From NCBI RefSeq assembly GCF_046105845.1, contig NZ_CP151004.1: a stretch of DNA of 64,000 nt; one strand, given 5' to 3'. Positions within the stretch are counted from its first letter, which is position 1. Every line of letters starts with the position of its first letter. A program made the position numbers and the translations under genes. The notes beneath the pieces were generated by a model that saw nothing but the letters and a program-made list of their open reading frames with translations, had not been told where the DNA came from and did not search any database. Source of the stretch: Escherichia coli. Its GTDB lineage: Bacteria; Pseudomonadota; Gammaproteobacteria; Enterobacterales; Enterobacteriaceae. This document shows, piece by piece, positions 26,362 through 52,054 of the stretch.

Positions 26362-27000
26362 ATGCCCGGGCGCTTTGAACTAAAACCAACCCTGGAGAAA
26401 GTCTGGCACGCGCCGGACAATTTTCTCTTCATGGACCCGCTGCCGCCGATGCATCGTCGGGGGATCATTATTGCCGCCATTGTATTGGTGGTCGGATTTC
26501 TGCTTCCATCTGATGATACGCCCAACGCGCCGGTGGTGACGCGTGAAGCGCAGTTAGATATTCAGTCGCAATCACAACCACCGACAGAAGAACAGCTGCG
26601 GGCGCAATTAGTCACGCCACAAAATGATCCTGATCAGGTGGCTCCGGTCGCTCCAGAACCAATACAGGAAGGCCAGCCAGAAGAGCAGCCGCACCCCCCC
26701 CAAACGCAACCATTCCAGCCAGATAGCGGAATTGATAATCAATGGCGCTCTTACCGTGTCGAACCCGGTAAAACGATGGCACAGCTGTTCCGCGACCACG
26801 GGCTGCCCGCTACCGATGTCTATGCAATGGCGCAGGTAGAAGGCGCGGGTAAGCCGCTGAGTAATTTGCAAAACGGGCAGATGGTGAAAATCCGCCAGAA
26901 CGCCAGCGGCGTGGTGACGGGCTTAACCATTGATACGGGGAATAATCAACAGGTCCTGTTTACCCGTCAGCCGGATGGCAGTTTTATTCGCGCGCGGTAG
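26362..27000 (+). CDS. ytfB: OapA/LysM-like domain cell-division protein YtfB
   Basis: Start set at [10 protein letters not shown] (212 aa), with AGGAGG at 26351-26356. Recognised as YtfB. Confidence 0.88.
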
Positions 27001-27091
27001 ATGAAGGGTCAACCAGAAGCCAGCTAAGGAGCGTCTCTTTGATGACCTTACGTCTGGCTTCCAGTGCCTGGGGTGAAACCATACTGATATG
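26984..27091 (-). pseudogene. ytfA: ytfA 3' fragment, separated from its 5' part by the IS insertion
   Basis: Joining 28840 to 27091 continues the ytfA frame: ...LGLVY|[35 protein letters not shown]. The 35 codons end at TAA 26984-26986. Boundary uncertain by a few nt. Confidence 0.55.
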
Positions 27092-27260
27092 TTGACATCC
27101 TCCACGCCCTGAAGGACGTGGATCCCTGCTACGTTCAGGCTGTCGCCTGAATCATTTCGGTGGGTTCCTGCTTCAACGAGCGGCCTGACTGCACCATCTC
27201 TCCACAGGCAAGAACGGCGTGCCCCGCCGCTAAAATGTTACGAGCGCCGTTTACATCGGC
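27076..27260 (-). ncRNA. Predicted omega-RNA (reRNA) of TnpB: scaffold from the tnpB 3' end plus RE, guide from flanking DNA
   Basis: Inferred by analogy with characterised TnpB systems; there is no direct sequence proof of a transcript. The putative 16-nt guide is CATATCAGTATGGTTT (27091 down to 27076, minus strand). Confidence 0.4.
27102..27121. repeat. RE subterminal imperfect hairpin
   Basis: CCACGCCCTGAAGGACGTGG: CCACG/CGTGG plus CC/GG stems, TGAA loop, C/A mismatch. Same architecture as the LE hairpin. Confidence 0.85.
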
Positions 27261-28343
27261 GTTCGCTGTATATCCACATGCCTGGCATCTGAATTGACTT
27301 TGTGACAGGCGATTTTCTTTCGCTGTATGACCACAGCACGCGCAACGCTGGCTTGTGTACGCTGGCGGAACAGCAAGCACCTGACCGCCACGCCAGAGCT
27401 GCTTGTACTCAAGCTGGCGGCGCATTTCATACCAGCCCTGATCCTGTATCGAACGGTTTAAACCTGATTTTGCCCGGACATTGCGCCCCGGCTGGCTGAC
27501 CGTACCCGCTGCTGACTTTGACATGTTGCTGACCTTCAAATCCTCAATGACTATCATTGCGTGGTTTTTGCTGACGGTCGTTGTGACTTTGTGAAGGTAG
27601 TCCCTGCGGATATTTGCGATACAGGAATGCAGTCGCTGTATTTTGCGTTTCTGCTTCTGCCAGTTGTTGCTGAATTTGACCTTGCGGCTTAACTGTCGCT
27701 GAAGTCTCGCCAGCGTCTTCTGGTTTTTCTGAAAACTGTTTACAGGCCCAAAGACTGTGCCATCTGACAGCGTGGCGAGTTTAGCCACGCCAGCATCCAG
27801 CCCGACCATTGATGCTGAAGGGTGAACCGGAGTTGATACTTCATTTTCAGTCTGAATACTGATGTACCACTTACCGCAGGACTGGCTGACAGTGACATTT
27901 TTCACAACACCCGTGACCTGACGGCTATTCCGGTAGCGCATACAGCCAAGTTTCGGCAGAAAAATACGGCTGTTTTCCTGATCGAGCTTAACGCCCTGCG
28001 GGTAGCGGAATGCATCATTCTGTCCCCGCTTTTTGAATCGGGGAAAAGCAGCCCGCTTCTGGAAGAAGTTTTTGTAAGCCCGCTCAAGGTCTTTCAGTGA
28101 CTGTTGCAATGGCTGTGACGGGGCATCTTTAAGCCATTGCGTTTCAGTGGCATTTTTCCACTCAACCAGCCAGGAAGCCATTTTCCCGTAAGGGATGTAT
28201 TTATTACCGGCCTCATGATTCTCATTCTGAAGCGCCAGAGCACGATTGAAAACGAAACGACATGCGCCTGCGAAGCGCCTCATTTCACACTCCTGTTGAC
28301 CACCTGGTCTTAACTGGAATTTAAATGCCTGTAATCGTTTCAC
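27135..28343 (-). CDS. tnpB: TnpB (IS605 OrfB family), putative RNA-guided DNA endonuclease
   Basis: 402-aa ORF with a GTG start. RuvC-like motifs GLDAG (D183), IVIEDL (E267) and NADVNGARN (D363). Zinc finger CACC...CQAC (C334/C337, C353/C356). Resembles K-12 InsQ/YdcM as I recall it. Confidence 0.9.
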
Positions 28344-28350
28344 AGGTCAA

Positions 28351-28782
28351 ATGATACTTTGGTCTATGAAAAAAGAAACCGATATCCGGCGTGGAAAGCA
28401 TTGTGTTTTCCTGATGCATGTTCACCTGGTCTTTGTCACCAAATACCGACGCCAGATTTTTGACCATGACGCGAAAGAAAAACTACGCACTTACTTTTCA
28501 AAGGTATGTGCTGATTTTGAAGCTGAACTGGTTGAAATGGATGGCGAACCAGATCACGTCCATTTGTTAATTAACTATCCTCCCAAACTGGCGATATCCA
28601 GTCTGGTAAACAGCCTCAAAGGCGTATCGAGTAGGTGACTGCGACGAGATCGACCAGATATTGCAGTCAGGTATTACTACAAAGGCGTTTTGTGGAGTCC
28701 TGGCTATTTTGCCAGTAGCTGCGGAGGTGCGCCAATATCCGCCATCCGTCAATACATTGAACAACAGCAAACACCTGGTTAG
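28351..28782 (+). pseudogene. tnpA: IS200/IS605 Y1 transposase TnpA interrupted by an in-frame TGA
   Basis: HUH motif HVH (H69-H71) lies in the 95-aa ORF. TGA at 28636-28638. The same frame continues LRRDRPDIAVRYYYKGVLWSPGYFASSCGGAPISAIRQYIEQQQTPG to TAG at 28780-28782. The catalytic Tyr (RQYIE) is downstream of the stop. Confidence 0.8.
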
Positions 28783-28803
28783 GTGGAAAACCGCGCCTTA
28801 TAT

Positions 28804-28823
28804 CCCCGCCCTGAAGGACGGGG
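28804..28823. repeat. LE subterminal imperfect hairpin
   Basis: CCCCGCCCTGAAGGACGGGG. It differs from the RE hairpin at two positions that are compensatory in the stem (A/T versus C/G). Confidence 0.85.
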
Positions 28824-28839
28824 TTTTACGGCGCACTGG

Positions 28840-29055
28840 ATAAACCAGGCCAAGCGTATGCTGGTTGATCAAATAATATCCCCCAAGCGCAGCAATATTA
28901 ATATTCACCTGCAATGGGTCGCTATCTGCCTTAAAAATATTGTGTTTCTTCCCTTCATCCAATAATTCCATTAAATGCAAGTGCGCATGATTAATTTCTA
29001 AGAGACGCTGTGATTTTGCATAATGCACACCTTTACTTTGGTTTTCACTATGCAC
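28840..29055 (-). pseudogene. ytfA: ytfA 5' fragment (TetR-family remnant) fused to IS-derived codons
   Basis: The 85-aa ORF (28798-29055) begins at GTG as [14 protein letters not shown]. Its last 13 codons ([13 protein letters not shown]) are read from the IS LE. The frame stays open upstream to a stop at 29182-29184 with no start codon. Confidence 0.6.
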
Positions 29056-29405
29056 AATTTTTAAAAACCTGGGATTAGCAATATAATAACCCCAGGTAAA
29101 ATCGATGATTTTTTCAATGGATTTTTGTGGCTGGTTAACCTGCTGATTAACGAACGCACCGATACCGACAGCGTAGAATAATTACATACCGCACAACAAG
29201 AATGTATGGTGTAAGGCGTTGTCAGTCATCTCCCTCCCTGGATGCATCGTTATATCCGTGATGAGCGATTTTTGATATTAATATCTTTCACCATCCGCTA
29301 TCTTCACTACTTCAGAAAACAAACTTATTTTTATTAATATCGATTATTTATTCTGTGCACATTCAGCTGCGATATTTATAAAAAAATTAAACAGGCAAAA
29401 ATACA

Positions 29406-30200
29406 ATGACATTACCAACCACTATTTATTCATTTCCTGCATATTCACCCCGTTTTTCGTCCACCGACAAACCAGTAAAATTAAAATTTCATCAATACGC
29501 ACGCGCTACATTACTTTCAAATCGTGGAAGAGATCATAATTGCGATGGCAGACATACTGTTGAGATCCACAAACTAGATCTCTCAGACTGGCAAGCATTC
29601 AATAAGTTAGCGACGAGGTGTAATGCTTACGATGGAATAACAATGAATGGTGATAATTCTTTTGGATGGAACCATGAAGCTACATTAGATAATATTCACG
29701 CCCAGAAATACAATAAAGCTTACGCGGGTGCGAGGTTAACCGCAGAACTGAAATATTTATTGCAAGATGTCGAATCCTTCGAACCCAACAGTAAATACAC
29801 AATACACGAGGTTGTTTTGGGACCTGGTTATACTACTCCAGACTATACCGGCCAATCGATAGGATACGTTGTAACCCTTCCTGCCCAAATGCCTAATTGC
29901 TGGTCATCTGAACTACCAACAATCGATCTTTATATCGACCAACTTCGCACTGTTACAGGCGTTTCTAATTCCCTCGGATTCATCATTGCTGCATTGCTAA
30001 ACGCGTATTCTGATTTACCCCATGATTTGAAAATTGGTCTGCATTCCTTATCAAGTTCAGCAGCAATCTACTCGGGTTTGGGTTTCGAGCGAGTGCCGCA
30101 GGAGCGAGACATCAGTTGCGCTCGTATGTATCTAACGCCAGCAAACCATCCTGACTTATGGACACAAGAGAATGGTGAATGGATCTACTTGCGAAACTAA
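29406..30200 (+). CDS. yjfZ: Uncharacterised protein YjfZ
   Basis: 264-aa ORF recognised as YjfZ. AT-rich upstream region. Confidence 0.85.
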   Translation: MTLPTTIYSFPAYSPRFSSTDKPVKLKFHQYARATLLSNRGRDHNCDGRHTVEIHKLDLSDWQAFNKLATRCNAYDGITMNGDNSFGWNHEATLDNIHAQKYNKAYAGARLTAELKYLLQDVESFEPNSKYTIHEVVLGPGYTTPDYTGQSIGYVVTLPAQMPNCWSSELPTIDLYIDQLRTVTGVSNSLGFIIAALLNAYSDLPHDLKIGLHSLSSSAAIYSGLGFERVPQERDISCARMYLTPANHPDLWTQENGEWIYLRN

Positions 30201-30222
30201 TACCTGACGAAAAATAGAAAGC

Positions 30223-30250
30223 AAAACGCCGACCACTGGTCGGCGTTTTT
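30223..30250. terminator. Bidirectional terminator between convergent yjfZ and rplI
   Basis: AAAACGCCGACC ACT GGTCGGCGTTTT: GC-rich 8-bp stem flanked by an A-run and a T-run. Confidence 0.85.
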
Positions 30251-30270
30251 ACGTCTCGTTGAATAACGAA

Positions 30271-30732
<462 letters not shown>

Positions 30733-30761
30733 TCAAAGTCGTATTAATGGACCGTGACCGA

Positions 30762-31308
<547 letters not shown>

Positions 31309-31314
31309 CAGAAA

Positions 31315-31815
<501 letters not shown>

Positions 31816-32036
31816 TGACATACCCCGCTAAACTCAAGGCCAGCCGACAAATAAATCTCATCTTTCACCAAATCGTACTAACACGCTGATTTGAAGTTCA
31901 TCACACTTCATCATGGTGTTTTTTTGAACAACTGCATCAGAAATGGTCACCATCAACTTCTTTATCATTGATTAAAATTAAATCAGAAGATCATCACAGA
32001 GGAGAGCACACAAAGTCAGCCGTCGAGGAGGTATCT

Positions 32037-32312
32037 ATGTTCAGTCGTGTTTTAGCCCTTCTGGCTGTGCTTTTGCTAAGTGCAAATACATGGGCAGCCA
32101 TTGAAATTAATAACCACCAGGCCAGAAATATGGACGATGTGCAAAGCTTAGGCGTGATTTATATCAACCATAACTTCGCCACTGAAAGTGAAGCACGTCA
32201 GGCATTAAATGAAGAGACAGATGCGCAGGGCGCAACGTACTACCACGTGATTCTAATGCGGGAACCGGGGAGTAACGGCAATATGCACGCCAGCGCGGAT
32301 ATTTATCGCTAG
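32037..32312 (+). CDS. yjfY: YhcN/BhsA-family (DUF1471) periplasmic protein
   Basis: Start set at MFSRVLALLAVLLLSANTWA (91 aa), with GAGGAGG upstream. Recognised as YjfY. Confidence 0.9.
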   Translation: MFSRVLALLAVLLLSANTWAAIEINNHQARNMDDVQSLGVIYINHNFATESEARQALNEETDAQGATYYHVILMREPGSNGNMHASADIYR

Positions 32313-32352
32313 CACCAGGTATAACCAACGAAACATTGCCATAGTTTGCTTT

Positions 32353-32377
32353 GCCCCCTTCGCAGGGGGCTTTTTTT
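32353..32377 (+). terminator. yjfY terminator
   Basis: GCCCCCT TCGC AGGGGGC followed by TTTTTTT. Confidence 0.85.
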
Positions 32378-32440
32378 GAAAAACGGCTGCGGAATTAGAC
32401 CAGTTATCTCCCGAAGAAGGAAATTTCCGCAGCGCGTGTT

Positions 32441-33127
32441 TTACTTCTGCCCGTAATAAGCGTTAGGACCGTGCTTACGCATGAAGTGTTTATTCATGAG
32501 GTAGCTGTCGATATGATTCAGTTGTGGGTTAATGCCGCGGGCAATCCACGCCATTTTCGCCACTTCTTCCATCACTACCGCGTTATGCACCGCATCGTGG
32601 GCATCTTTCCCCCAGGCGAACGGCCCGTGCTGGTACACCACAATCCCCGGTGTATGCAGAGGCTCGGCGTTGCCCAGCGTTTCGATAATCACTTTGCCGG
32701 TGTTCAGTTCGTACTCGCCCTGCACCTCTTCTTCGCTTAATCCGCGCGTGCACGGGATGTCGCCAAAGAAGTAATCGGCGTGCGTAGTGCCTAACGCCGG
32801 GATCGCCAGCCCCGCTTGCGCCCATGCGGTAGCATGAGTTGAGTGGGTATGGACAATACCACCAAGCGACGGATAACGACGGTAGAGTTCGAGATGCGTG
32901 GCGGTGTCGGAAGACGGGCGATATTCCCCTTCCACCACCTTGCCGCTCATATCGACCACTACCATATCGTCTGCTTTCATGGTTTCGTAGGCGACACCGC
33001 TGGGCTTGATCACCACCAGCCTGCGTTCGCGGTCAATGGCACTGACGTTGCCCCAGGTAAAGGTCACCAGCCCGTAGCGCGGCAGATCCATGTTGGCTTC
33101 AAACACCTGCTGTTTTAGCTTTTGCAT
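32441..33127 (-). CDS. ulaF: L-ribulose-5-phosphate 4-epimerase
   Basis: 228-aa class II aldolase/epimerase ORF recognised as UlaF (SgaE). Confidence 0.95.
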
Positions 33128-33981
33128 TATGCCGCCTCCACCATGCCTGCTTTAGCCATACGCGCTTTCACCCAATCACGCGCTTTCGCCACTTCTGCCG
33201 CCGGGTCTTCCGCCGTTTCGCTCCACATCTCAATCAGGTACGGCCCGCAATAGCCACTCTGTTTGAGCGTTTCGAAGCAACGTTCGAAATCCACTACGCC
33301 TTCGCCAAATGGCACATTTTTGAAGACGCCTGGTTTGGTGTCTTTCACATGTACCGCGACGATATGCCCGATTCCGGCCTGCAACTCCATCTGCACATCG
33401 TTGTCCCACGCCGACAGGTTGCCGATATCCGGGTAGAGCTGGAACCACGGGTTGTTGAGATAGTGCGCGTAGCCCAGCGCCTTGCTGATGGAGTTCATCA
33501 ATGGGTAATCCATGATCTCCATCGCCAGCGTCACCTGCGCGCGGCTTGCCATCTCAACGCTCTCTTTCAGGCCGTCACGGAAACGACGACGCGTTTCGTT
33601 ATTGGCTTCCTGATAATAAACGTCATAGCCCGCCAGCTGGATCACACGGATACCGACATCCTGGGCGAACTGGATAGCTTTGCGCATAATCTCCAGCCCC
33701 TGCGCCCGCACCGCGTCATCTTCGCTACCCAGCGGGAAACGACGATGAGCAGAAAGGCACATAGACGGTACACGCACGCCGGTTTCAACAATCGCATTCA
33801 CCAGCGCCAGACGCTGCTCGCGGCTCCAGTCGAGGCGCGACAGGCGATCGTCCGTTTCATCTACCGACATCTCGACAAAATCGAAGCCTAACGTTTTTGC
33901 AAGTTGCAGCCGTTCCAGCCAGCACTCCCCGGCGGGGAGCGCTTTTTCATAGATGCCAAGCGGGATTTGTTTGGACAACAT
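33127..33981 (-). CDS. ulaE: L-ribulose-5-phosphate 3-epimerase
   Basis: 284-aa TIM-barrel ORF recognised as UlaE (SgaU). 1-bp overlap with ulaF. Confidence 0.95.
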
Positions 33982-33990
33982 ATCCGCTCC

Positions 33991-34641
33991 TTAGCCCCAC
34001 AGTTCGGCGATGGAACGTTTGAACTGACGCGCGGCTTCAACCGGAGAAGCGGCATCACGGATGCTGCGACCAGCGATAAACACGTGAATCGGAATGCCTT
34101 TGAACAGCGGCAGATCTTCCAGCGCCAGGCCACCGGTGACGGTCACTTTGAAGCCCATATCGGAAAGACGTTTGATCGCGGTAATGTCCGCTTCGCCCCA
34201 CGCCACGCCTGCGGCCTGTGCGTCACGGCTGCGGTGATAAACCACCTGCTGAATGCCTGCATCGCGCCACTGTTGCGCCTGTTCCCAGGTCCAGTAACCG
34301 GTCAGTTCGATCTGCACGTCGCCGTTAAACTCTTTTGCCACGTCCAGCGCACCTTTGGCGGTGTTGATATCCGCACAGCAAATCACGGTCACCCAGTCAG
34401 CGTTGGCTTCAAAGCACATACGAGAAAGGATTTTGCCCGCATCGGCAATTTTGGCGTCTGCCAGTACGATTTTGTGCGGGTAAAGCGCTTTCAGATCGCG
34501 AACCGCACGCACGCCTTCGCCCACGCACAGAATGGTGCCCACTTCGATAATGTCGACTTCTTCGGCAATCAGGCGAGTGGTTTCGTAGGCGCTATCCATA
34601 GTCTGGTTGTCCAGCGCGACTTGCAACATCGGTAATGACAT
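33991..34641 (-). CDS. ulaD: 3-keto-L-gulonate-6-phosphate decarboxylase
   Basis: Start set at [13 protein letters not shown] (216 aa). Recognised as UlaD (SgaH). Confidence 0.95.
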
Positions 34642-34654
34642 TTTCAATTCCTTC

Positions 34655-35119
34655 TTAAGCTGCCGCGTTGGTGCGGTCAATGAGATCCAGTACTTCCTGC
34701 TCGGTACGGCAGGCGCGTAAACGGTCGAAATTCTCTTCATCTTCAAACAGGTTAACGATCTGCATGATGCCCACTTCCTGATGAGTGTTGGCATCGACCG
34801 CCGCCATGGTGATGAGGATATCCACCGGATCGTTATCTTCGTGGTTGAACTCCAGCGGCTTTTTCAGCGTCACTAGCGCAAAACCGGTTTTCTTAACGCC
34901 CTCTTCCGGGCGACCGTGCGGCATTGCCAGGCCTGGTGCGAGCACAAAGTACGGACCGTGCTGTTCAACCGCATCCAGAATCGCCTGGTAGTAACGCGGC
35001 TCGACAACATCCGCCGCCACCAGCAGGTCAACGCCGATTTTTACTGCGTCCTGCCATGTCTCAGCTTCAGCCTGCAGGCGGATGGATTTATTCTCCGCCA
35101 GCGAATCACGTAATTTCAT
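34655..35119 (-). CDS. ulaC: Ascorbate PTS enzyme IIA
   Basis: 154-aa ORF recognised as UlaC (SgaA). Confidence 0.95.
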
Positions 35120-35128
35120 GGCGCGTCC

Positions 35129-35434
35129 TTACTTCACATCCTGCGGGAAATGCTCTTTGATCACTTCCAGCAGTTTCGGGCCAAAGTCGGCAGGAGAGAG
35201 CATGTTGCGCACACCAACCACGTATTTGTTGCCGGTCACGGTGATTTCGCCCGCAATGTGCGTAGAAGCGATGATGATATCCGCGCCGCTCAACTCGCTT
35301 TTGTATTCGCCAACCGCGCAGCTGTTTACCGTGTGGTCAATGTTTGATTGGGTTAAAAACTGGTCCACTTTCATCTTCATGATCATGGAACTGCCTTGTC
35401 CGTTGCCACACACAGCCAGAATACGTACGGTCAT
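35129..35434 (-). CDS. ulaB: Ascorbate PTS enzyme IIB
   Basis: Start set at [16 protein letters not shown] (101 aa), which contains the active-site Cys motif. Confidence 0.95.
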
Positions 35435-35449
35435 AATCAAAACTCCTTA

Positions 35450-37201
<1,752 letters not shown>

Positions 37202-38266
37202 ATGAGTAAAGTGAAAAGTATCACCCGAGAATCCTGGATCCTGAGCACTTTCCCGGAGTGGGGTAGCTGGCTGAATGAAGAAATTGAACAAGAGCAGGTC
37301 GCCCCTGGCACATTTGCGATGTGGTGGCTAGGCTGCACCGGGATCTGGCTGAAATCAGAAGGTGGCACCAACGTTTGCGTTGATTTCTGGTGCGGCACTG
37401 GCAAACAAAGTCACGGTAACCCGTTAATGAAACAGGGTCACCAGATGCAGCGCATGGCTGGCGTGAAAAAACTGCAGCCAAACCTGCGCACCACCCCGTT
37501 TGTTCTTGATCCGTTTGCGATTCGCCAGATCGACGCGGTACTGGCGACTCACGATCACAACGATCATATCGACGTTAACGTCGCTGCTGCCGTGATGCAG
37601 AACTGTGCTGATGACGTACCGTTCATTGGACCGAAAACCTGCGTTGATTTGTGGATTGGCTGGGGCGTACCGAAAGAGCGTTGCATCGTGGTCAAACCGG
37701 GCGATGTTGTAAAAGTGAAAGACATTGAAATTCATGCGCTTGACGCTTTCGACCGTACTGCACTGATCACCCTACCTGCCGATCAAAAAGCGGCTGGCGT
37801 ACTGCCAGATGGCATGGACGATCGCGCAGTAAACTACCTGTTCAAAACCCCTGGCGGTTCCCTGTATCACAGTGGCGATTCCCACTACTCTAACTATTAT
37901 GCGAAGCACGGTAACGAACATCAGATCGACGTGGCTTTAGGTTCATACGGCGAAAACCCGCGCGGTATTACCGACAAAATGACCAGCGCCGATATGCTGC
38001 GTATGGGTGAAGCCCTGAATGCGAAAGTGGTTATCCCGTTCCACCACGACATCTGGTCAAACTTCCAGGCCGATCCGCAAGAAATCCGCGTGCTGTGGGA
38101 GATGAAAAAAGATCGTCTGAAGTATGGCTTCAAGCCGTTTATCTGGCAGGTGGGCGGCAAATTTACCTGGCCGTTGGATAAAGACAACTTCGAATACCAC
38201 TATCCGCGTGGTTTCGATGATTGCTTCACTATTGAACCGGATCTGCCGTTCAAGTCATTCCTGTAA
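37202..38266 (+). CDS. ulaG: L-ascorbate-6-phosphate lactonase (metallo-beta-lactamase fold)
   Basis: Start set at [12 protein letters not shown] (354 aa). HDHNDH metal motif. Confidence 0.95.
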
Positions 38267-38279
38267 TCTGTCGTTTATA

Positions 38280-38311
38280 CCGGATAGCGTGGAGTAGTTC
38301 GCGCTATCCGG
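38280..38311 (+). terminator. Hairpin downstream of ulaG (REP-like or terminator)
   Basis: CCGGATAGCG (38280-38289) pairs with CGCTATCCGG (38302-38311); 10-bp stem, 12-nt loop, weak T-tract. Confidence 0.5.
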
Positions 38312-38373
38312 CGTAGTATTTCCTGGCTATTTCAAATATCATCTAAAAAAATCAAATTTTATCGGAATAGCTC

Positions 38374-39129
38374 ATGACTGAAGCACAAAGACATCAAATC
38401 CTCCTGGAAATGCTCGCACAATTGGGCTTTGTGACCGTTGAGAAAGTCGTTGAGCGTCTGGGAATTTCGCCTGCCACTGCGCGACGCGATATCAATAAAC
38501 TTGACGAAAGCGGCAAACTGAAAAAAGTGCGCAATGGCGCAGAAGCTATTACCCAGCAGCGCCCACGCTGGACGCCGATGAATCTGCATCAGGCGCAGAA
38601 TCACGATGAAAAAGTACGTATTGCTAAAGCGGCCTCGCAGCTGGTTAATCCGGGCGAAAGCGTAGTCATCAACTGCGGCTCCACCGCGTTTCTGCTTGGG
38701 CGGGAAATGTGTGGCAAGCCAGTGCAAATCATCACTAATTATCTACCGCTGGCAAATTACCTGATCGATCAGGAGCATGACAGCGTGATCATTATGGGCG
38801 GACAGTACAACAAAAGTCAGTCCATCACTTTAAGCCCGCAAGGCAGCGAAAACAGTCTCTATGCCGGGCACTGGATGTTTACCAGCGGCAAAGGGCTGAC
38901 AGCAGAAGGGTTGTATAAAACCGATATGCTGACGGCAATGGCAGAGCAGAAGATGCTAAGCGTGGTAGGGAAACTGGTGGTACTGGTTGATAGCAGTAAG
39001 ATCGGCGAACGCGCGGGAATGCTTTTTAGCCGTGCCGATCAAATCGATATGCTGATCACCGGCAAAAATGCTAACCCGGAAATCCTGCAACAACTGGAAG
39101 CGCAAGGGGTCAGCATTCTGCGTGTTTAA
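38374..39129 (+). CDS. ulaR: DeoR-family repressor of the ula regulon
   Basis: 251-aa ORF with an N-terminal HTH ([24 protein letters not shown]). Recognised as UlaR. Confidence 0.95.
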
Positions 39130-39875
39130 AGATGCTGGCGGAAAAATGTCACGGCAGCATCTAACGCCTCAGGCGTAATGCGGTGACGCACGCCTGGCTG
39201 CCATGAACAGGTTAGCAGTTTATCCCGTCCCGTCTCGCTTAAGGCCTGCTGCAAACGTAGTGATTCGTCGGCAGGCACGACGTCATCGTCAAGGCCATGC
39301 CACAGCAGTAGAGGTCTGTCACCAAGTTGTTCCAGGTGGTTTGTCGCTTCCCACTCTGCCAGCGGCGCGACAATGTTATTGAATTCATTCTGCTGTGCTG
39401 CCGTTTCAGGTATCAGCGGTGGAAACAGTGAACGGGCGAGCGATGTAAAATAGCCCGATCCCATCATGCTGGCGGTACATTTCACCGTGGGGTGGCGAGC
39501 GGTAATTCCCAGTGCCGTCATCGCGCCCATCGACGCGCCACCGACTGCCAGACGGTCAGCAAGCAGCCAGTTTTCTTCGGCTATTGCCGCACGTAACGTA
39601 GTGAATTCCTGCATACTTTGTAGCAAAATTTGCCAAAATTGATTTAACCGCCGCGCTGCGTCGCCCCTAAAACGGCTACCGTGATCGGGCGCATCCGGCA
39701 TGATCACTCGCAAACCAGCCTGCGCCAGCGCAACGGCAAAATAGCTATACACCAGACTGGACGAAGTAAAGCCGTGATAAAAAATCACGCACGGTAATGG
39801 GGTATCTTTTTGCCCGACAGGATAAGCATGAAGAACGGGAATATCTGCCAGCTCGCGTGATTCTATTTCAATCAT
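39126..39875 (-). CDS. yjfP: Alpha/beta-hydrolase esterase
   Basis: 249-aa ORF with nucleophile elbow GASMG. Recognised as YjfP. Its 3' end overlaps ulaR by 4 bp (convergent). Confidence 0.9.
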
Positions 39876-40056
39876 CTGTCTCTCCTTTTTGTCTGGTATG
39901 ACATGAAGAAATCCTTAGCACAAGTTTCTGCTGGCGGTATTAGTTCATAATGTTGAGATGTGGGTTACGCTTTCATCACGTTTTCATTCGAAAATCGCGT
40001 ACCAGGTAACAATTCGGGAACATTCCCCCAAAGTTAAATTAATAAGGCACTACACT

Positions 40057-40386
40057 ATGGTTAGCAGGAAACGTAATAGCGTTATTTACCGGTTTGCCAG
40101 TTTATTATTGGTGTTGATGTTAAGTGCCTGTAGCGCACTGCAAGGTACGCCACAGCCAGCACCGCCAGTAACCGACCATCCGCAAGAGATTCGCCGCGAC
40201 CAGACGCAAGGGTTACAGCGAATAGGTAGCGTAAGCACGATGGTTCGGGGTTCTCCGGATGACGCATTAGCAGAAATCAGAGCGAAAGCTGTCGCTGCAA
40301 AAGCTGATTATTACGTTGTCGTCATGGTGGACGAAACCATCGTCACAGGACAGTGGTATTCACAAGCCATTTTGTACCGTAAATAA
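40057..40386 (+). CDS. bsmA: Biofilm stress and motility lipoprotein BsmA (YjfO), DUF1471 family
   Basis: Start set at MVSRKRNSVIYRF (109 aa). Lipobox LSAC. Confidence 0.9.
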   Translation: MVSRKRNSVIYRFASLLLVLMLSACSALQGTPQPAPPVTDHPQEIRRDQTQGLQRIGSVSTMVRGSPDDALAEIRAKAVAAKADYYVVVMVDETIVTGQWYSQAILYRK

Positions 40387-40534
40387 ATCAGACAACTTAC
40401 ATAGTCAGCTTTACATTGCTTTGCGTCCCTATGCGTTTACCTGTGCACAATAAATTACCGGCTGGAAGCTCGGGCGTTTATTACCGCGATGGAATGCCCT
40501 GCAACATGTGGGGAAACGAAAAATGGAGCTGACG

Positions 40535-40810
40535 ATGAAACAATTACTTGCCTCACCCTCGCTGCAATTAGTGACTTATCCTGCGAGCGCCACGGCACAG
40601 TCTGCAGAATTCGCCAGTGCTGACTGCGTGACGGGCCTGAATGAAATAGGTCAGATCTCAGTTAGCAATATTTCAGGGGATCCGCAGGACGTGGAACGTA
40701 TCGTGGCGTTAAAGGCCGATGAACAAGGTGCGTCATGGTACCGCATTATTACCATGTACGAAGACCAGCAGCCTGATAACTGGCGCGTACAGGCGATACT
40801 GTATGCATGA
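40535..40810 (+). CDS. yjfN: DUF1471-family periplasmic protein YjfN
   Basis: Start set at MKQLLASPSLQLV (91 aa), with GGAG upstream. C-terminus ...WRVQAILYA is typical of the family. Confidence 0.88.
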   Translation: MKQLLASPSLQLVTYPASATAQSAEFASADCVTGLNEIGQISVSNISGDPQDVERIVALKADEQGASWYRIITMYEDQQPDNWRVQAILYA

Positions 40811-40834
40811 GTGTCATCTACAGCAAATGAACAA

Positions 40835-40868
40835 TGCCGGATGCGGCGCGAGCGCCTTGTCCGGCCTA
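40835..40868. repeat. REP element downstream of yjfN
   Basis: TGCCGGATGCGGCGCGAGCGCCTTGTCCGGCCTA, a canonical REP. Confidence 0.75.
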
Positions 40869-40926
40869 TAATTTTCACATATTTCATTGAGTTAATTGAA
40901 ACCAGCGTTGCATCAGTCGTATACGC

Positions 40927-42552
40927 TTACACACACACTCCCCCCGTCGCCCGCAGCAATAAATCATTCTGGATCTGCTCTGACAACCGTACGCCGCCGC
41001 GCGTATCTAACATCACCTGACACCACGCCTGCGCCATTGGCGGAGAGGCATATTTCAACATTTGCGCACCGCAGCCCAGCAGGAATAGCTTATGAGTAAT
41101 CTCTCGCCCCAGTTCTTCAGCTGGCTTACGCAGCTGCTGCTGTAAACGACGAACCGCGCGATCAAAATAGCGATCCTGCCCTTTCACTTCCACAAATGCT
41201 TCCGACAATAAGTCGTATACACCCGCTTGCTTATTGAGAACACGCAGTACATCCAGGCACATAATATTACCGGAACCTTCCCAAATACTGTTTACCGGCA
41301 TCTCCCGGTAAAGCCGCGGCAGCTCGCTCTCCTCGCAATAACCAATGCCGCCCAGCACCTCCATCGCTTCGGCCACAAACGGCATACCTCGTTTGCAGAT
41401 CACAAATTTCACCGCAGGCGTAAATAAACGCGCCCACAGGGCTTCTTTAGCATCGGCACGCCGGTCCCACGCTCGCGCAAGACGAAACAGCAACGCCGTT
41501 TGCCCTTCAAGCTGAAGTGCCATGCGACTTAAGACATGACGCATAAGGGGCTGTTGGATCAATGGATTACCAAAAACATGGCGTTGATGGGCATGATAAA
41601 TCGCCAGCGAAAATGCACGGCGCATCATGGCATGGCTACCCAGGGCGCAATCAAAACGCGTCATCCCTCCCATTTTCAGGATCAGACGAGTTCCTTCCCC
41701 TTCCTGCCCTAACAACCAGCCAATGGCATCCTGAAACTCCACTTCGCAGCTGGCGTTAGAGCGATTACCCAGCTTATCTTTCAGCCGCTCGAGGCGAATC
41801 GCGTTGCGTTGCCCGTCAGGCAAAAAGCGCGGCACAAAAAAGCAGGACAAACCGCCCGTAGTCTGCGCCAGCACCAGATGCGCATCGCTTTGCGGCACCG
41901 AGAAAAACCATTTATGCCCCACCAGCCGATAAGAGCCATCTTCCAGGCGCTCTGCGCGGGTGGTGTTGCTCATGACATCGGAACCGCCCTGCTTTTCCGT
42001 CATTCCCATGCCAATCAACAAACCGCGTTTTTGCCCACCTGGCAATAAGTGAGAATCGTAGCGATCGCTCAACAGCGGCGTGGTCCAGTCCTGAAACGGC
42101 GTGGGTAACATCTGTAACAACAATGGCGTGGCGGCAAAGGTCATCGTTATCGGACATAACGACCCTGCCTCAACCTGTGCGTGCAACATAAAACGCGCCG
42201 CGCGCGCCACAAATGCGCCGGAGCGAGCGTCTTCTTCCCAGGCAAGATTGTGCACCCGATTGGTACATAGCGCCTGCATCAGCAAGTGCCAGGCGGGGTG
42301 AAAACGCACATCGTCCAGATGGCGTCCTTGCGCATCGTAGCGCAATAATTCAGGCGGATTCACATTCGCCAGCCGCCCCAGTTCAAGAGATTCAGCCGTT
42401 CCTAACTGCTGACCAATACTGGCTAGAAAATCGCTATCCCAGCCAGCACCTTCACGCGTTACCGCTTCACAGAGCGCGCCATCAGACAGGTATAAGTTAC
42501 TGTTATTTAATGGTATAGGTTGATTAAAAACGGTGTGAGTTTGCCAGTGCAC
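40927..42552 (-). CDS. aidB: Acyl-CoA-dehydrogenase-like adaptive-response protein AidB
   Basis: Start set at GTG 42552 (VHWQTHTVFNQP, 541 aa), with GGAGGGAG upstream. Recognised as AidB. Confidence 0.93.
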   Translation of the reverse strand: MHWQTHTVFNQPIPLNNSNLYLSDGALCEAVTREGAGWDSDFLASIGQQLGTAESLELGRLANVNPPELLRYDAQGRHLDDVRFHPAWHLLMQALCTNRVHNLAWEEDARSGAFVARAARFMLHAQVEAGSLCPITMTFAATPLLLQMLPTPFQDWTTPLLSDRYDSHLLPGGQKRGLLIGMGMTEKQGGSDVMSNTTRAERLEDGSYRLVGHKWFFSVPQSDAHLVLAQTTGGLSCFFVPRFLPDGQRNAIRLERLKDKLGNRSNASCEVEFQDAIGWLLGQEGEGTRLILKMGGMTRFDCALGSHAMMRRAFSLAIYHAHQRHVFGNPLIQQPLMRHVLSRMALQLEGQTALLFRLARAWDRRADAKEALWARLFTPAVKFVICKRGMPFVAEAMEVLGGIGYCEESELPRLYREMPVNSIWEGSGNIMCLDVLRVLNKQAGVYDLLSEAFVEVKGQDRYFDRAVRRLQQQLRKPAEELGREITHKLFLLGCGAQMLKYASPPMAQAWCQVMLDTRGGVRLSEQIQNDLLLRATGGVCV

Positions 42553-42571
42553 TGTGTCTCCCTCCATCAAT

Positions 42572-42599
42572 GGCAGTCACCATTAGTATGGTCACTGCC
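42572..42599. promoter_or_regulatory. Imperfect 12-bp inverted repeat between yjfC and aidB
   Basis: GGCAGTCACCAT TAGT ATGGTCACTGCC, with one mismatch. It lies 20 bp upstream of the aidB start and 37 bp downstream of the yjfC stop. Confidence 0.4.
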
Positions 42600-42635
42600 A
42601 TGGATTCATGACAGAAAGAGATTGCTAAAACATTC

Positions 42636-43799
42636 TTATCCAGCAATGTAATGCGGAACGAAACGTGAGGTGTCTTTGGTGATCAGCGTGTTATCTTCAC
42701 GGATCCCCATTCCGCACGCTTCATCATCGACAATCCAGCTACCGATGAGTGTGTAGCTATCGCCAAATCGCGGCAGAGGTTGAAACGCCTGGTAGATCAT
42801 CGGTTCATCGGCGTAATCACCATCAGCGTGGTCAACGACGTTATTCTGACCGTCGAAAATGGTGACATTGCCGCCTTCGCGCGAGTAGATCGGTTTACGC
42901 ACATAGCTTTCGCCAGCGGCAATCTGCGGTTTTTCGCCCTCAAACCAGGATGCAAGAAGGTTAGGATGACCAGGGAAGAAGCGCCAAAGCAGTGGCATTA
43001 GCCCTTTATTACTCAAGATACTTTTCCATAACGGCTCCACCCATTGCTCGCGACGCTTGCGCAGCAGCGGACCGTTATCGTCACGCATCATCCACTCTAG
43101 CGGATACAGCTTAAATGCACGCTGGATGACATTATCATCAAGATCGGTCAGTACACCGCCGACGCCCAAACCGAGATCTTCAATGTAGATAAACCGCGAC
43201 TCCTGCCCTGCCTGCTGGGCGCAGTCCTGCAAATACAGCACGGTAGTCCTGTCTTCATCGGTGTCCTGACAGCAGCAAAAATAAAACGGTTCCCGACTGT
43301 AAAGCTCGCTAAAGCGTGAAATCAGGCGTTCCTGAATAGCATTGTACTGATCGGCATCACGCGGAATAATGCCGCTGCGCCGGGCATCCTCCAGCCACAG
43401 CCACTGGAAATAAGCCGACTCGTACAATGAAGTTGGCGTATCGGCGTTGTACTCCAGTAGCTTCACCGGCGCATTGCCACACCAGGCAAAATCCATCCGG
43501 CCATACAGCGAAGGATCTCGTGCGCGCCAGCTTTCGGCGATCACATCCCAGTACAATGGCGGGATCGCCAGTTGCGTCAGGATCTCTTCGTCTTTAACCG
43601 CGCGATCCACCACCTCAAGGCACATCTGATGCAGTTCCGCAGTCGGTTTTTCGATCTGCTCTTCAATCTGACGCAGGGTAAAGCGGTAAGCCCGACTCTC
43701 ATCCCAATAGATTTCATTGTCGATGATATGAAAGTCGAAACCGTTGTCAGCGGCGATCTGGTCCAGATCCCACCGTACAGGAACGTTGTGTCTCAGCAT
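42636..43799 (-). CDS. yjfC: Glutathionylspermidine-synthase-like ATP-grasp protein of unknown substrate
   Basis: Start set at MLRHNVPVR (387 aa). Recognised as YjfC, the paralogue of YgiC. Confidence 0.9.
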   Translation of the reverse strand: MLRHNVPVRWDLDQIAADNGFDFHIIDNEIYWDESRAYRFTLRQIEEQIEKPTAELHQMCLEVVDRAVKDEEILTQLAIPPLYWDVIAESWRARDPSLYGRMDFAWCGNAPVKLLEYNADTPTSLYESAYFQWLWLEDARRSGIIPRDADQYNAIQERLISRFSELYSREPFYFCCCQDTDEDRTTVLYLQDCAQQAGQESRFIYIEDLGLGVGGVLTDLDDNVIQRAFKLYPLEWMMRDDNGPLLRKRREQWVEPLWKSILSNKGLMPLLWRFFPGHPNLLASWFEGEKPQIAAGESYVRKPIYSREGGNVTIFDGQNNVVDHADGDYADEPMIYQAFQPLPRFGDSYTLIGSWIVDDEACGMGIREDNTLITKDTSRFVPHYIAG

Positions 43800-43801
43800 G
43801 A

Positions 43802-44440
43802 TTAGCCTCCCCAATGCCCACGGGCGCTGGAAGAACGACCATAGCCGCCGCGAGAAACGGTTGACGCTTTTTTGGTGGTAAAGCCGCCCGAAGAGTAAGA
43901 CTCTTTTTTGCCAGAACCGGAGCGCCAGGAGTAATCACCAGAAGTGTTGCGCCAGACAGGGCGCGAAGCAAAAGAGGAACCGCCGCTGTTATAAACAAAC
44001 TGCTCATCACGATCTTTACGTATAACCCGGCTTAACAAAAATCCAGAAACGACCGGGATCCAACTCTGTTCAACGTTGTCGTAGTAACAATTTTCATACT
44101 TAGACTGACAATTCTGCTGAGTCATATTCTTCGGAACATCGGCATAAAACGCCGCTTTGGCGTTGTTCCAGCCATGAGCACAGATATCTGAATTATTTCC
44201 GTCATCAATACAATCCTGCACAGTCGAGTAAAACGTTCCGTCGCCGTCGTTATCGACATCGCCACTATCGCCACAACCTTTCAATACGAAAAAAGCGGCA
44301 CCGCCCATTAGCGCCAACGTTAAGTATTTTTGTGCGTAACGATTGCGACGCGGTTCAAAAGGATTATTCGGTCTACCAATGCGACTGATCGCTCCGTGAC
44401 CAATTTTACTGTTATTTCTTGATTTGCGTTTTCTGGCCAT
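43802..44440 (-). CDS. yjfM: DUF1190-family protein YjfM
   Basis: 212-aa ORF. Basic N-terminus, one hydrophobic segment (YLTLALMGGAAFFVL), a Cys-containing middle region and a Gly/Ser/Arg-rich tail. Recognised as YjfM. Confidence 0.88.
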   Translation of the reverse strand: MARKRKSRNNSKIGHGAISRIGRPNNPFEPRRNRYAQKYLTLALMGGAAFFVLKGCGDSGDVDNDGDGTFYSTVQDCIDDGNNSDICAHGWNNAKAAFYADVPKNMTQQNCQSKYENCYYDNVEQSWIPVVSGFLLSRVIRKDRDEQFVYNSGGSSFASRPVWRNTSGDYSWRSGSGKKESYSSGGFTTKKASTVSRGGYGRSSSARGHWGG

Positions 44441-44449
44441 GATCGTCCA

Positions 44450-44848
44450 TTACCATGTCATACAAGCTGCGTTAAAAATACCGCCAGCCAGTGCGGCGGT
44501 TCCCATAAACATTCCTGCTGCGGTATTGTGATTAATAATTTTTTCGCTTAATGCGGGCATATAAAGTCTGACGCCAGCAAAAACGAGTAACTGAATCACC
44601 AGTGCGATCCCGCCCCAGGCGAAATAGTCTGGAATACTCACCGCATTGATTGCCGCACTGGATAACGGGATCACGTAACCCAACAATGTACCGCTGAACG
44701 CCAGTGACGCCGCGGTATTATTGTTTTTGATTAACTGCCATTCGTTGTGCGGTGTAATTTTAGAATAGATAAACAGAAAAATAATCACCATAGCCACGCC
44801 AATAAAAAAATAGGCACTAAAGGCAAGAAGAGAATCCAGTATATGCAT
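44450..44848 (-). CDS. yjfL: DUF350-family small inner-membrane protein
   Basis: Start set at MHILDSLLAFSAYFF (132 aa). Four hydrophobic segments. Confidence 0.88.
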   Translation of the reverse strand: MHILDSLLAFSAYFFIGVAMVIIFLFIYSKITPHNEWQLIKNNNTAASLAFSGTLLGYVIPLSSAAINAVSIPDYFAWGGIALVIQLLVFAGVRLYMPALSEKIINHNTAAGMFMGTAALAGGIFNAACMTW

Positions 44849-44865
44849 TGTAAACGTCCTTGTAA

Positions 44866-45525
44866 TTAACCAATAATATGAAGTGATGTCAGCGGGATAT
44901 CGACACCCAACGCGCGCGAAAATAACCACTCTGGCTCGCCGAGATCGTTAAAAGATTCCTCACCATTTAGCAGCAAATATTCGTAAGTATCTTCGGTTAC
45001 TTGCCGTTGGTAGCCCATGGTAAAATTATGGACCTCCCATTTGGCATGGTTTTGATTTTCTACTTTTTCCAGCATGTAGACGGGTTCGATATTTCCCGGT
45101 TCTTCGCTGTTAAAAAATCGCTGCCAGCGTTTTTCCTGCCAGTTTAAGGTCATTGCCCCCATCGCTTTGGCATTGATCGTCTCGCGCCAGTGACTCTCTT
45201 TACTGATACCGTAGCTCTCTTCATAGACAAAGAGCTTGATATCATCAATGTCATCAATATTTTCGCCGCCGGTGGTATTGATTTGCAGAAATTCATCGCC
45301 CGAAGTGTAGTAGCGGAAAATCTGGCTACCGCCGCCCAGATCGATGCGGCTGACGGCGGCTACCGTAAATTCCTCACCCGGCAGCGCAATCAGCAATTCA
45401 TCTTCCAGCAAACGAAACGCTAACGTGTCGAGCGTAAAACCACTATTGAGATGCAGACCCAGCGGACCGCGAGCGATAGCAGGCTTATTATCCTTGCCAA
45501 ACAGACGCTGGAAAAAACCAGACAT
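44866..45525 (-). CDS. yjfK: DUF2491-family protein YjfK
   Basis: 219-aa ORF recognised as YjfK. Confidence 0.88.
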   Translation of the reverse strand: MSGFFQRLFGKDNKPAIARGPLGLHLNSGFTLDTLAFRLLEDELLIALPGEEFTVAAVSRIDLGGGSQIFRYYTSGDEFLQINTTGGENIDDIDDIKLFVYEESYGISKESHWRETINAKAMGAMTLNWQEKRWQRFFNSEEPGNIEPVYMLEKVENQNHAKWEVHNFTMGYQRQVTEDTYEYLLLNGEESFNDLGEPEWLFSRALGVDIPLTSLHIIG

Positions 45526-45545
45526 ATTTTATCCTTAAAATAGTT

Positions 45546-45568
45546 GCCAGCCTTGCAGTGAGGCTGGC
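45546..45568 (-). other. Intercistronic hairpin between yjfJ and yjfK
   Basis: GCCAGCCT (45546-45553) pairs with AGGCTGGC (45561-45568). No clear downstream T-run on the coding (minus) strand. Confidence 0.5.
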
Positions 45569-45575
45569 AAAAAAA

Positions 45576-46274
45576 TTACTCGCCCTGTTGGCGTTGCAGT
45601 CTTGCTAATACATCCTGGGCGCTACTTTTATTGCTACCGCCTATTCCGGCTTCCGCCAGCTTTTCATCAAGATCGCGACCGTCTGCGACTTTTTCCAACT
45701 GTGCAGCAGCATCCAGACGAGCCTGACGTTCGGCCTGACGCGTTTGCAGGCGTTTTAAGGATTCTGCCGCTGTCGAAACGCTGGAAGATGCGCCAACGGT
45801 AGAGGTCGTTACAGCCTGTTGTGCACGCTGCATGGCTTCAGTGGCTTTAACGACTTCCATTTGCTGCTCAAACTGAGCGATACGCTGCGCTGTCGCTGTA
45901 ACTGCTTTTTCCACGCCATCACGGGAGACTTCCAGATTCGACAACACTTGCTCTTCAGCGGTAATGAGATTCTCAAGGCGCGCGATTTCTTCAGCAACTT
46001 CGTTAATCAACGACGGATTAACGTTCTTGCTTAACGCTTCCAGCGCACGAGCTTCCAGACTGGCTTTGCGCTCACGTAAATCTTTCAGCTTATCGTGACT
46101 TAATTTCACCCGCGCCAGCAGATCAACGCGAGATTTTCCGGCTTTATCGAGTTCAGCTTTAGCGTCACGAATATGCTGTTCCAGCATGCGCACGCCCTGG
46201 GTTTCTTCAATGGATTCTTCCGCTTGGGAGATAAACGATTTCCCCAGCGTAAATAAACTTTTTAAAATTCCCAT
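45576..46274 (-). CDS. yjfJ: PspA/IM30 (Vipp1/ESCRT-III-like) family protein
   Basis: 232-aa coiled-coil-type ORF recognised as YjfJ. Confidence 0.9.
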   Translation of the reverse strand: MGILKSLFTLGKSFISQAEESIEETQGVRMLEQHIRDAKAELDKAGKSRVDLLARVKLSHDKLKDLRERKASLEARALEALSKNVNPSLINEVAEEIARLENLITAEEQVLSNLEVSRDGVEKAVTATAQRIAQFEQQMEVVKATEAMQRAQQAVTTSTVGASSSVSTAAESLKRLQTRQAERQARLDAAAQLEKVADGRDLDEKLAEAGIGGSNKSSAQDVLARLQRQQGE

Positions 46275-46292
46275 AAATACCCGTCCTTGTAA

Positions 46293-46694
46293 TTAGTGTG
46301 AATATTCTTCTGTAATTTCAGCCAGATCCAATGCGTTATCTACCAGCGAGGTTATCTCAAGCAGGATATCTTCAAGAGAAGATTTAAGCGATAACGCCCC
46401 GAAAACAATGTAATACTCTTCCTGTTGTACGCTGGAGATCCCTACCGATGACAACGGCATCATCTTCTGATTTCTTAATAAGAAGGTATTAAATTCATCT
46501 GGATTGCTGATACTACTCACCGGACAAATAAAGGTTTCGATAATCATTTGGCGGGAAGTAAAAAGAATATTGATTTGCAAATCGCCATAATCATTCATTT
46601 TAATAATTAATGCGTTCTCGCTATTTGTTACATCAATATTTTGTTCAGGTACAGTTTGCAGCGCCGTCGCCAGCGCCAACGGATTCCATGTCAT
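46293..46694 (-). CDS. yjfI: DUF2170-family protein YjfI
   Basis: 133-aa ORF recognised as YjfI, first gene of the yjfIJKLMC string. Confidence 0.88.
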   Translation of the reverse strand: MTWNPLALATALQTVPEQNIDVTNSENALIIKMNDYGDLQINILFTSRQMIIETFICPVSSISNPDEFNTFLLRNQKMMPLSSVGISSVQQEEYYIVFGALSLKSSLEDILLEITSLVDNALDLAEITEEYSH

Positions 46695-46773
46695 ATATTA
46701 TTCCATATAGATTTAGTTTAAATATTAACAAAATGAATATTTGCAGTACGTAATTATCTTACCAGCTAAACAC

Positions 46774-46801
46774 AAAAAAAAACCATCCAAATCTGGATGG
46801 C
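46774..46801 (-). terminator. Rho-independent terminator downstream of rlmB
   Basis: The minus strand reads GCCATCCAGATTTGGATGG followed by TTTTTTTTT, 20 nt after the rlmB stop. Confidence 0.85.
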
Positions 46802-46820
46802 TTTTCATAATTCAGAGGAA

Positions 46821-47552: not shown

Positions 47553-47576
47553 TAATGTACTCGTTGTTTACGTTTT

Positions 47577-47637: not shown

Positions 47638-47642
47638 TGTGA

Positions 47643-50084: not shown

Positions 50085-50122
50085 CTCGGTTCCTCCGTTG
50101 TCATCTCTGATGAAGATTTTCG

Positions 50123-50752: not shown

Positions 50753-52054
<1,302 letters not shown>

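Follow-up and report, generated by a model that had tools for sequence, protein, structure and literature searches.

A complete IS609 copy in the ytfA remnant of Escherichia coli, with an interrupted transposase gene and an intact tnpB

The closest described relatives of the element treated here are IS608, ISDra2 and the IS609 copy of Escherichia coli K-12 MG1655. The use of omega-RNA guides and homing are known from ISDra2 and Geobacillus TnpB, and by the ISfinder convention the copies of one insertion sequence (IS) share at least 95% nucleotide identity. IS608 is cleaved 3' of TTAC at its left end (LE) and, at its right end (RE), after a TCAA 10 nt from the hairpin. Each hairpin is preceded on its 5' side by a guide tetranucleotide, GL (AAAG) or GR (GAAT), that base-pairs with the cleavage site (PMC3201880, PMC5934647). 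Excision of IS200/IS605 elements restores the donor site exactly (PMC3201880), and HgcC and sot RNAs have been described as non-coding RNAs at tnpB 3' ends (PMC4615843). Here, we analyzed a window of 64,000 nucleotides from E. coli contig NZ_CP151004.1 (assembly GCF_046105845.1), in which a sequence-only reading had placed an IS200/IS605-family element inside ytfA. All positions refer to this window unless a genome is named. Positions 27092-28839 are a complete copy, an isoform, of the known insertion sequence IS609, which belongs to this family. The explanation that we hold with high confidence is that a full-length IS609, with a broken tnpA and an intact tnpB, represents an old insertion that segregates in E. 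coli and lies in a ytfA that was probably dead already.

The MG1655 feature annotated as 'insertion sequence:IS609' (1503161-1504908) is 1748 bp long, equal in length to the window element. The two sequences aligned without gaps over 1748/1748 bp at 97.65% identity and shared their termini. With this annotated feature as the reference, the window element belongs to IS609 by a full-length identity of at least 95% and by equal ends. In addition, PGAP labels the tnpA genes of copies at the same locus as 'IS200/IS605-like element IS609 family transposase', and no observation speaks against this identity. The window minus strand serves as the transposon top strand, so that LE is at 28839 and RE at 27092. 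The element and its cleavage sites are as follows.

27092..28839, minus strand: complete IS609, 1748 bp, delimited by empty-site alleles, five independent copies and the length match to MG1655 IS609

27092..27095, minus strand: TCAA of the right cleavage site; these four nucleotides close the element and lie 7-10 nt 3' of the RE hairpin

28840..28843, minus strand: target and left cleavage tetranucleotide TTAT, host DNA directly 5' of LE, also the putative target-adjacent motif (TAM) of TnpB

Alignment to MG1655 and other E. coli genomes, which the sequence-only reading had proposed as a way to find empty-site alleles, showed that the site is empty in K-12 MG1655 (L003/L005) and in SF-173 (L002). 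Both read ...CTGATGTG/ATAAACC..., where the slash marks the insertion point; the longer reading is ...ACCATACTGATGTG/ATAAACCAGGCC... in both. The filled site of the window reads ...CTGATATG-[ TTGACATCC ... GGCGCACTGG ]-ATAAACC.... The difference between filled and empty sites is exactly 1748 bp. Host bases are neither duplicated nor lost, and the comparison leaves an ambiguity of 1 nt (G). We therefore compared IS609 copies at five other loci (yedK, yeaQ/DUF1869, K-12 ydcO, yfeD and yidH). All five start with TTGACATCC, corresponding to 27092, and finish with GGCGCACCGG followed by ATAA; the window copy and L001, the closest copy at the same locus, finish with GGCGCACTGG. The consensus LE terminus across copies is ...GGCGCACYGG (28839), always with ATAA next, and the base preceding TTGACATCC differs between insertion sites. 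Because the five other-locus copies share both ends, the boundaries 27092 and 28839 are exact and the G ambiguity disappears. The same coordinates had been proposed from the sequence with a doubt of about 3 nt on the LE side, which the empty sites and the five copies removed.

The cleavage sites follow the same pattern. TTGA at 27092-27095 is TCAA on the minus strand; it is terminal in 7/7 copies, and the base beyond it varies. ATAA adjoins LE at 6/6 independent insertion sites, which gives YTTAT on the top strand, and it is kept in the empty sites. Insertion 3' of a conserved tetra- or pentanucleotide without target-site duplication is a mark of the family. The expectation that this element would insert as IS608 does, with RE ending in TCAA, was thus borne out, the tetranucleotide being TTAT.

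Near each end, the element carries an imperfect palindrome.

27102..27121, minus strand: RE subterminal imperfect palindrome, preceded on the top strand by GGAT (27122-27125) in the position of guide GR

28804..28823, minus strand: LE subterminal imperfect palindrome, preceded on the top strand by AAAA (28824-28827) in the position of guide GL

The two motifs, CCACGCCCTGAAGGACGTGG at 27102-27121 and CCCCGCCCTGAAGGACGGGG at 28804-28823, are in direct orientation and identical at 18/20 positions. They were the only matches to the hairpin motif in the 64-kb window, with 0 expected from 100 shuffles. Folded as single-stranded DNA, the top strand gave -7.7 kcal/mol at RE (z = -2.7) and -14.1 kcal/mol at LE (z = -3.6). 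The element tips match as an inverted repeat at 6/40 positions, and there are no terminal inverted repeats; subterminal imperfect palindromes in their place are characteristic of the IS200/IS605 family. By analogy with IS608, AAAA with TTAT would be the change expected from AAAG with TTAC, and GGAT would go with TCAA. These results agree with the sequence-only reading, which had described both hairpins at these positions, the divergent tnpA and tnpB between them, the lack of terminal inverted repeats and the TCAA 7-10 nt 3' of the RE hairpin on the minus strand. Its assignment to the IS605 type of the family also held, and the element is specifically IS609.

Rather than a recent event in this strain, the insertion is an old polymorphism of E. 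coli. We searched 5426 complete E. coli genomes and called a genome filled when a single match covered at least 80% of window 26600-29400, that is, the IS with both flanks. IS609 was present at the ytfA junction in 1699 of the 5426 genomes, about one third; among the carriers are 55989, an O145:H28 strain and isolates from cattle. The insertion had been taken for strain-specific. This claim failed, since the same junction occurs in all of these genomes and on flank haplotypes up to 7.5% apart.

Nine copies at this locus were aligned: the window and those of WP4-S18-ESBL-07, Nord58, M11957, O145:H28 RM13516, 121, XJ5.2, 2015C-4498 and GmF067. The junctions were identical in all nine. The IS609 sequences at this locus were 97.8-99.0% identical to that of the window, whereas the flanks were far more diverged. 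The right flank was 92.5-100% identical among filled alleles, and the ytfA-yjfZ spacer (28840-29400) is unusually diverged from one E. coli haplotype to another, with identities as low as 92.5%. On its right flank, the empty K-12 allele was 99.3% identical to filled L019 and 98.7% to filled L016, as against 93.4% to the window. Given these identities, filled alleles stand on both sides of the deepest split among haplotypes with a truncated ytfA, and K-12 is nested within their range. The site is empty in K-12, BL21 and the SF-173 type, and all alleles with an intact TetR gene are empty. The pattern suggests either that the insertion predates the haplotype split and K-12 lost IS609 by seamless excision, or that recombination moved the IS between haplotypes. 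A search for the RE junction CATACTGATRTGTTGACATCCTCC across GTDB species representatives gave no match and thus no sign of the ytfA insertion outside E. coli. Among these representatives, the exact IS609 RE pattern was found in E. coli (L011, a full-length copy) and Shigella flexneri only. The S. flexneri representative (L012, 6070-6477) holds a 412-bp RE-proximal fragment of IS609 that is 92% identical.

Judged by its sequence, ytfA is what is left of a TetR/AcrR regulator whose N-terminal part is gone. In the window it consists of two pieces.

28840..29131, minus strand: ytfA remnant, upstream piece, approximately TetR residues 83-179, with the TetR_C_29 domain (Pfam E = 7e-14)

26985..27091, minus strand: ytfA remnant, C-terminal piece, 35 codons and a stop, overlapping the 3' end of ytfB; annotated by PGAP in L001

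SF-173 carries an intact 215-aa TetR/AcrR regulator at the same position, overlapping the ytfB stop. The homology of the window and K-12 to this gene ends at window 29131, and K-12 ytfA, an annotated pseudogene, corresponds to the C-terminal 133 codons of the 215-aa regulator. When IS609 was removed in silico, a continuous frame resulted (...QHTLGLVY/HISMVSPQ...STARE), which matches both K-12 ytfA and the SF-173 TetR protein. The insertion falls between the Tyr and His codons at the slash and splits the remnant in two. The 85-aa open reading frame (ORF) at 28798-29055 (minus strand) matches TetR_C_29 and takes its last 13 codons from IS609, as had been recognized, together with its stop. A single old pseudogene accounts for both small 'TetR/AcrR' fragments and for the 85-aa ORF. 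A chimeric query, the IS609 left end joined to the intact TetR N-terminus, was covered on both sides by 0 of the 5426 genomes. Given that ytfA is already truncated in every filled genome, it was probably non-functional before the insertion, which would have destroyed nothing functional. The view that IS609 interrupts ytfA therefore stands as far as the remnant is split by the element, but it had missed that ytfA was already a pseudogene, and it had overlooked the C-terminal piece at 26985-27091.

K-12-type ytfA is the scar of losing an SF-173-type block. In SF-173 (L020, 662-11621), this block lies between ytfB and rplI and replaces window ~29131-30200, and yjfZ is absent. It contains an operon of ~8 kb (3-ketoacyl-ACP reductase, enoyl-CoA hydratase, CoA transferase and FAD oxidoreductase) with an IS1 insertion inside. 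The block also holds the intact TetR/AcrR gene, a gene for an MFS transporter, and a toxin-antitoxin pair of the HipA/HTH type.

The transposase gene of the window copy is interrupted by an in-frame stop that the sequence-only reading had not noticed.

28366..28782, plus strand: tnpA pseudogene (Y1 HUH transposase), with TGA as codon 91 at 28636-28638 and TAG at 28780-28782

With the internal stop masked, the product matched PF01797 (Y1_Tnp) at E = 2e-43 over the complete profile (1-121). Its HUH motif and the context of the catalytic tyrosine, RQYIEQQ, match those of IS608 TnpA (2a6m), which identifies it as the Y1 (HUH) TnpA of the family. The TGA separates the HUH motif (HVH), which precedes it, from the catalytic Tyr, which follows. 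The product of this gene would thus lack the nucleophile, and the window copy should be non-autonomous. It should move only with an intact IS609 TnpA supplied from elsewhere in the genome.

We compared codon 91 among different IS609 copies. In L001, which is 98.97% identical to the window copy, codon 91 is TTA (Leu) and tnpA is annotated as intact. Leu is found at codon 91 in 7/9 of the ytfA-locus copies, and in some of the copies at this locus the annotation gives tnpA as intact. The window shares its TGA with Nord58 at ytfA and with the copies at yedK and K-12 ydcO (L006, L008 and L013), three loci in all, which may reflect shared descent, gene conversion or recurrence. In exact 31-mer counts, the TGA form occurred at 3369 places (2725 genomes) and the TTA form at 6304 places (3879 genomes), so that by this measure the TGA-91 allele makes up ~35% of the IS609 tnpA copies. 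In the first sample (the window, L001 and the five other loci), tnpA was interrupted in 5/7 copies; in L009 and L010 it carries frameshifts and several stops. The terminal TAG of tnpA (28780-28782) reads CAG in most of the other-locus copies and in several ytfA-locus copies. In the CAG form, the reading frame crosses the left end and enters host DNA, and PGAP marks such genes with 'missing C-terminus'.

The second gene of the element is intact, and its 3' end overlaps a candidate guide RNA.

27135..28343, minus strand: tnpB (insQ-type RNA-guided endonuclease), 402 aa, intact

27076..27262, minus strand: putative omega RNA (right-end guide RNA), of predicted extent, with a scaffold from ~27262 to 27092 that overlaps the tnpB 3' end and RE

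TnpB contains the Pfam domains OrfB_IS605 (E = 6e-34), Cas12f1-like_TNB (PF07282, E = 1e-24) and HTH_OrfB_IS605. It aligned with the ISDra2 TnpB structures 8bf8/8exa at E = 3e-52 over residues 3-376. The RuvC residues D183, E267 and D363 and the zinc-finger CxxC motifs at 334 and 353 are present, as in the nuclease family. A length of 402 aa was found in 11/14 sampled copies; of the other three, two stop 4 codons short and one has a frameshift. The ytfA-locus copies of M11957 and O145:H28 RM13516 encode 398 aa, and that of GmF067 is frameshifted by an 11-bp deletion (L014, L015 and L019).

An RNA fold of the tnpB 3' end and RE gave z = -2.9. In an Rfam scan of this region, there was no match at the gathering threshold, and sub-threshold matches were on the tnpB strand alone. 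They were to HgcC, in an alignment that spans the RE hairpin and the GAGGAnGUCA tail, to sot0042 (E = 0.05) and to RAGATH-18 (E = 0.0085). The predicted guide is the 16 nt beyond RE (27091-27076), CAUAUCAGUAUGGUUU, which would act with TTAT as the TAM. By analogy, TnpB probably acts with this RE guide RNA against the empty ytfA site. Its predicted target is TTAT plus CATATCAGTATGGTTT, and excision would create a donor joint, GGTTTAT/CATATCAG..., that is a perfect target for TnpB. The K-12 allele (CACATCAG) has one mismatch to the predicted guide, at position 3. The A/G single-nucleotide polymorphism at 27089, which is guide position 3, was considered as a marker of filled and empty sites and was rejected, since G also occurs in filled L013, L016 and L019.

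These findings are consistent with the following history. By analogy with IS608, IS609 would have arrived through single-strand 'peel and paste' transposition and joined the lagging-strand template 3' of a TTAT. The intact tnpB most likely makes a nuclease loaded with RNA from the tnpB 3' end and RE, as described for ISDra2 and Geobacillus TnpB, and the 16-20 nt of ytfA sequence that adjoin RE would serve as the guide. After an excision, the TnpB complex would cut the TTAT-flanked empty site, and IS609 would be copied back from the sister chromosome.

Several points weigh against this account. The analysis spans 64 kb of the genome, and a possible intact IS609 tnpA elsewhere lies outside that scope. 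UGA followed by C, as in codon 91, is a weak stop in E. coli, the weakest context for UGA, and some full-length TnpA may be made by readthrough. Pairwise Nei-Gojobori dN/dS, which was ~1.3 for ytfA-locus tnpA and, in favour of this account, ~0.30 for tnpB (78 pairs), rests on 3-17 substitutions per pair, and gene conversion between copies could distort it. The HgcC match (27079-27202) had E = 0.007 and 24.6 bits against a gathering cutoff of 50. Finally, the literature searched on IS609 and insQ/TnpB in E. coli consisted of genome surveys, with no functional work among them.

We weighed the old-insertion explanation against other readings of the same data. The empty sites of K-12, BL21 and the SF-173 type would fit a recent, strain-specific insertion that knocked out ytfA and left the K-12 site as the ancestral form, and all intact-TetR alleles being empty makes the deepest ancestral state empty. 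We consider this reading very improbable. It conflicts with the number of genomes that share the junction, with the differences of 1.0-2.2% between the same-locus copies and the window's, and with filled alleles in both deeply diverged flank groups, where the K-12 flank is nearer to filled L019 than to the window. It also conflicts with the missing N-terminal part of ytfA in every filled genome. Somewhat less unlikely, in our view, is a domesticated and immobile TnpB locus, at which selection for a role that benefits the host or the element retains the nuclease or its RNA at a fixed site and the empty alleles stem from seamless excision before tnpA decayed. The intact tnpB of nearly all samples, its low dN/dS beside that of the often interrupted tnpA, the frequency of the TGA-91 allele, and the empty K-12 allele nested among filled haplotypes are what such a locus would show, and excision in this family restores the donor site exactly (PMC3201880). 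However, most ytfA-locus copies keep Leu-91 and some an intact tnpA, which means that immobility is not uniform at this locus. Recombination could just as well shift the IS between haplotypes, ordinary selfish homing also predicts purifying selection on tnpB, and few substitutions were counted.

TGA-91 could also be a leaky stop that throttles the transposase, which would leave the window copy weakly autonomous. The recurrence of this TGA at three loci (ytfA, yedK and ydcO) and in 2725 genomes, the C that follows it, and the frame preserved downstream to the normal TAG all fit such a role. We nevertheless regard it as improbable: descent from the common ydcO copy and gene conversion explain the sharing more simply, the frameshifts and multiple stops of L009 and L010 are plain decay of tnpA, no recoding signal was seen, although no search aimed at one was made, and readthrough would insert Trp at a conserved Leu. 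A broader scenario can be put forward tentatively, with a small chance of being right. IS609 may have persisted at ytfA since before the deep haplotype split through selected TnpB and guide RNA, while its transposase decayed or was throttled by a recurrent, possibly leaky UGA-C; the empty K-12-like alleles would then be secondary excisions. The old, segregating IS609 with a broken tnpA and an intact tnpB remains the explanation that we prefer.

The whole window was aligned with MG1655 4385000-4465000 by megablast. Three colinear blocks were obtained (1-27091, 28839-47605 and 47615-64000), which correspond to K-12 4455110-4392738 at 97.2-98.1% identity, and the region from fbp to queG is colinear. 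IS609 had been described as the only break in K-12 colinearity. This is true at the scale of genes, but one other difference above 20 bp exists: ~90 bp of palindromic REP-like DNA in the rnr-rlmB intergenic region, K-12 4409122-4409222, is absent at window 47605-47615. Small insertions and deletions relative to K-12 measured 17, 8, 6, 3 and 3 bp. The window lacks the 17, 8 and 6 bp and an in-frame 3 bp (GGA, in the ytfA remnant) at 15285, 4078, 6861 and 28966, respectively. Over 20 kb, identity to the window did not exceed 98.8% in any of the 5426 complete RefSeq genomes, and the lineage of the window appears not to be represented among them.

IS609, the mechanism of its family and its presence in E. 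coli are already known, and the ytfA site is already annotated in ~1700 RefSeq genomes. The practical yield is the exact coordinates of the element, the recognition of the ytfA fragments as one pseudogene, and the recognition that the transposase of this copy is broken. Beyond correct annotation, this is of little importance. A modest interest lies in the population pattern, which can be tested cheaply in E. coli. The pattern of a conserved tnpB, a decaying tnpA and a nested empty K-12 allele fits current ideas that TnpB aids the persistence of elements. If it were true, locus-fixed maintenance by TnpB would be a natural long-term example of a homing nuclease in the best-studied bacterium.

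The locus compares with the known systems as follows. IS609 resembles IS608 in its Y1 HUH TnpA (window TnpA vs. 2a6m, E = 5e-20), its subterminal palindromes, an RE that ends in TCAA 10 nt past the hairpin, a tetranucleotide target without duplication, and a guide 5' of each hairpin. It differs in the target, TTAT with guide AAAA instead of TTAC with guide AAAG, and in GR, which is GGAT in IS609 and GAAT in IS608. The spacing from LE cleavage to the hairpin is 16 nt in IS609 and 19 nt in IS608, and tnpA and tnpB are divergent, as in IS605, whereas they are co-directional in IS608. The likeness to ISDra2 lies in TnpB, whose RuvC D/E/D residues and zinc-finger cysteines are conserved in IS609, and perhaps in a putative RE RNA, since the IS609 RE weakly matches RNA families of tnpB 3' ends. 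The TAM is TTGAT in ISDra2 and predicted to be TTAT in IS609; the literature searched held no experiments on the IS609 RNA or nuclease. The closest system is IS609 of MG1655 (yncK, a tnpA pseudogene, and insQ). It lies at ydcL-ydcO instead of ytfA and differs from the window copy by 41 substitutions; tnpA has an ATG start and TAG as codon 139 in the window copy, and GTG and CAG in K-12. The two copies share their ends, the TTAT target, the divergent layout, the 402-aa TnpB and TGA as codon 91.

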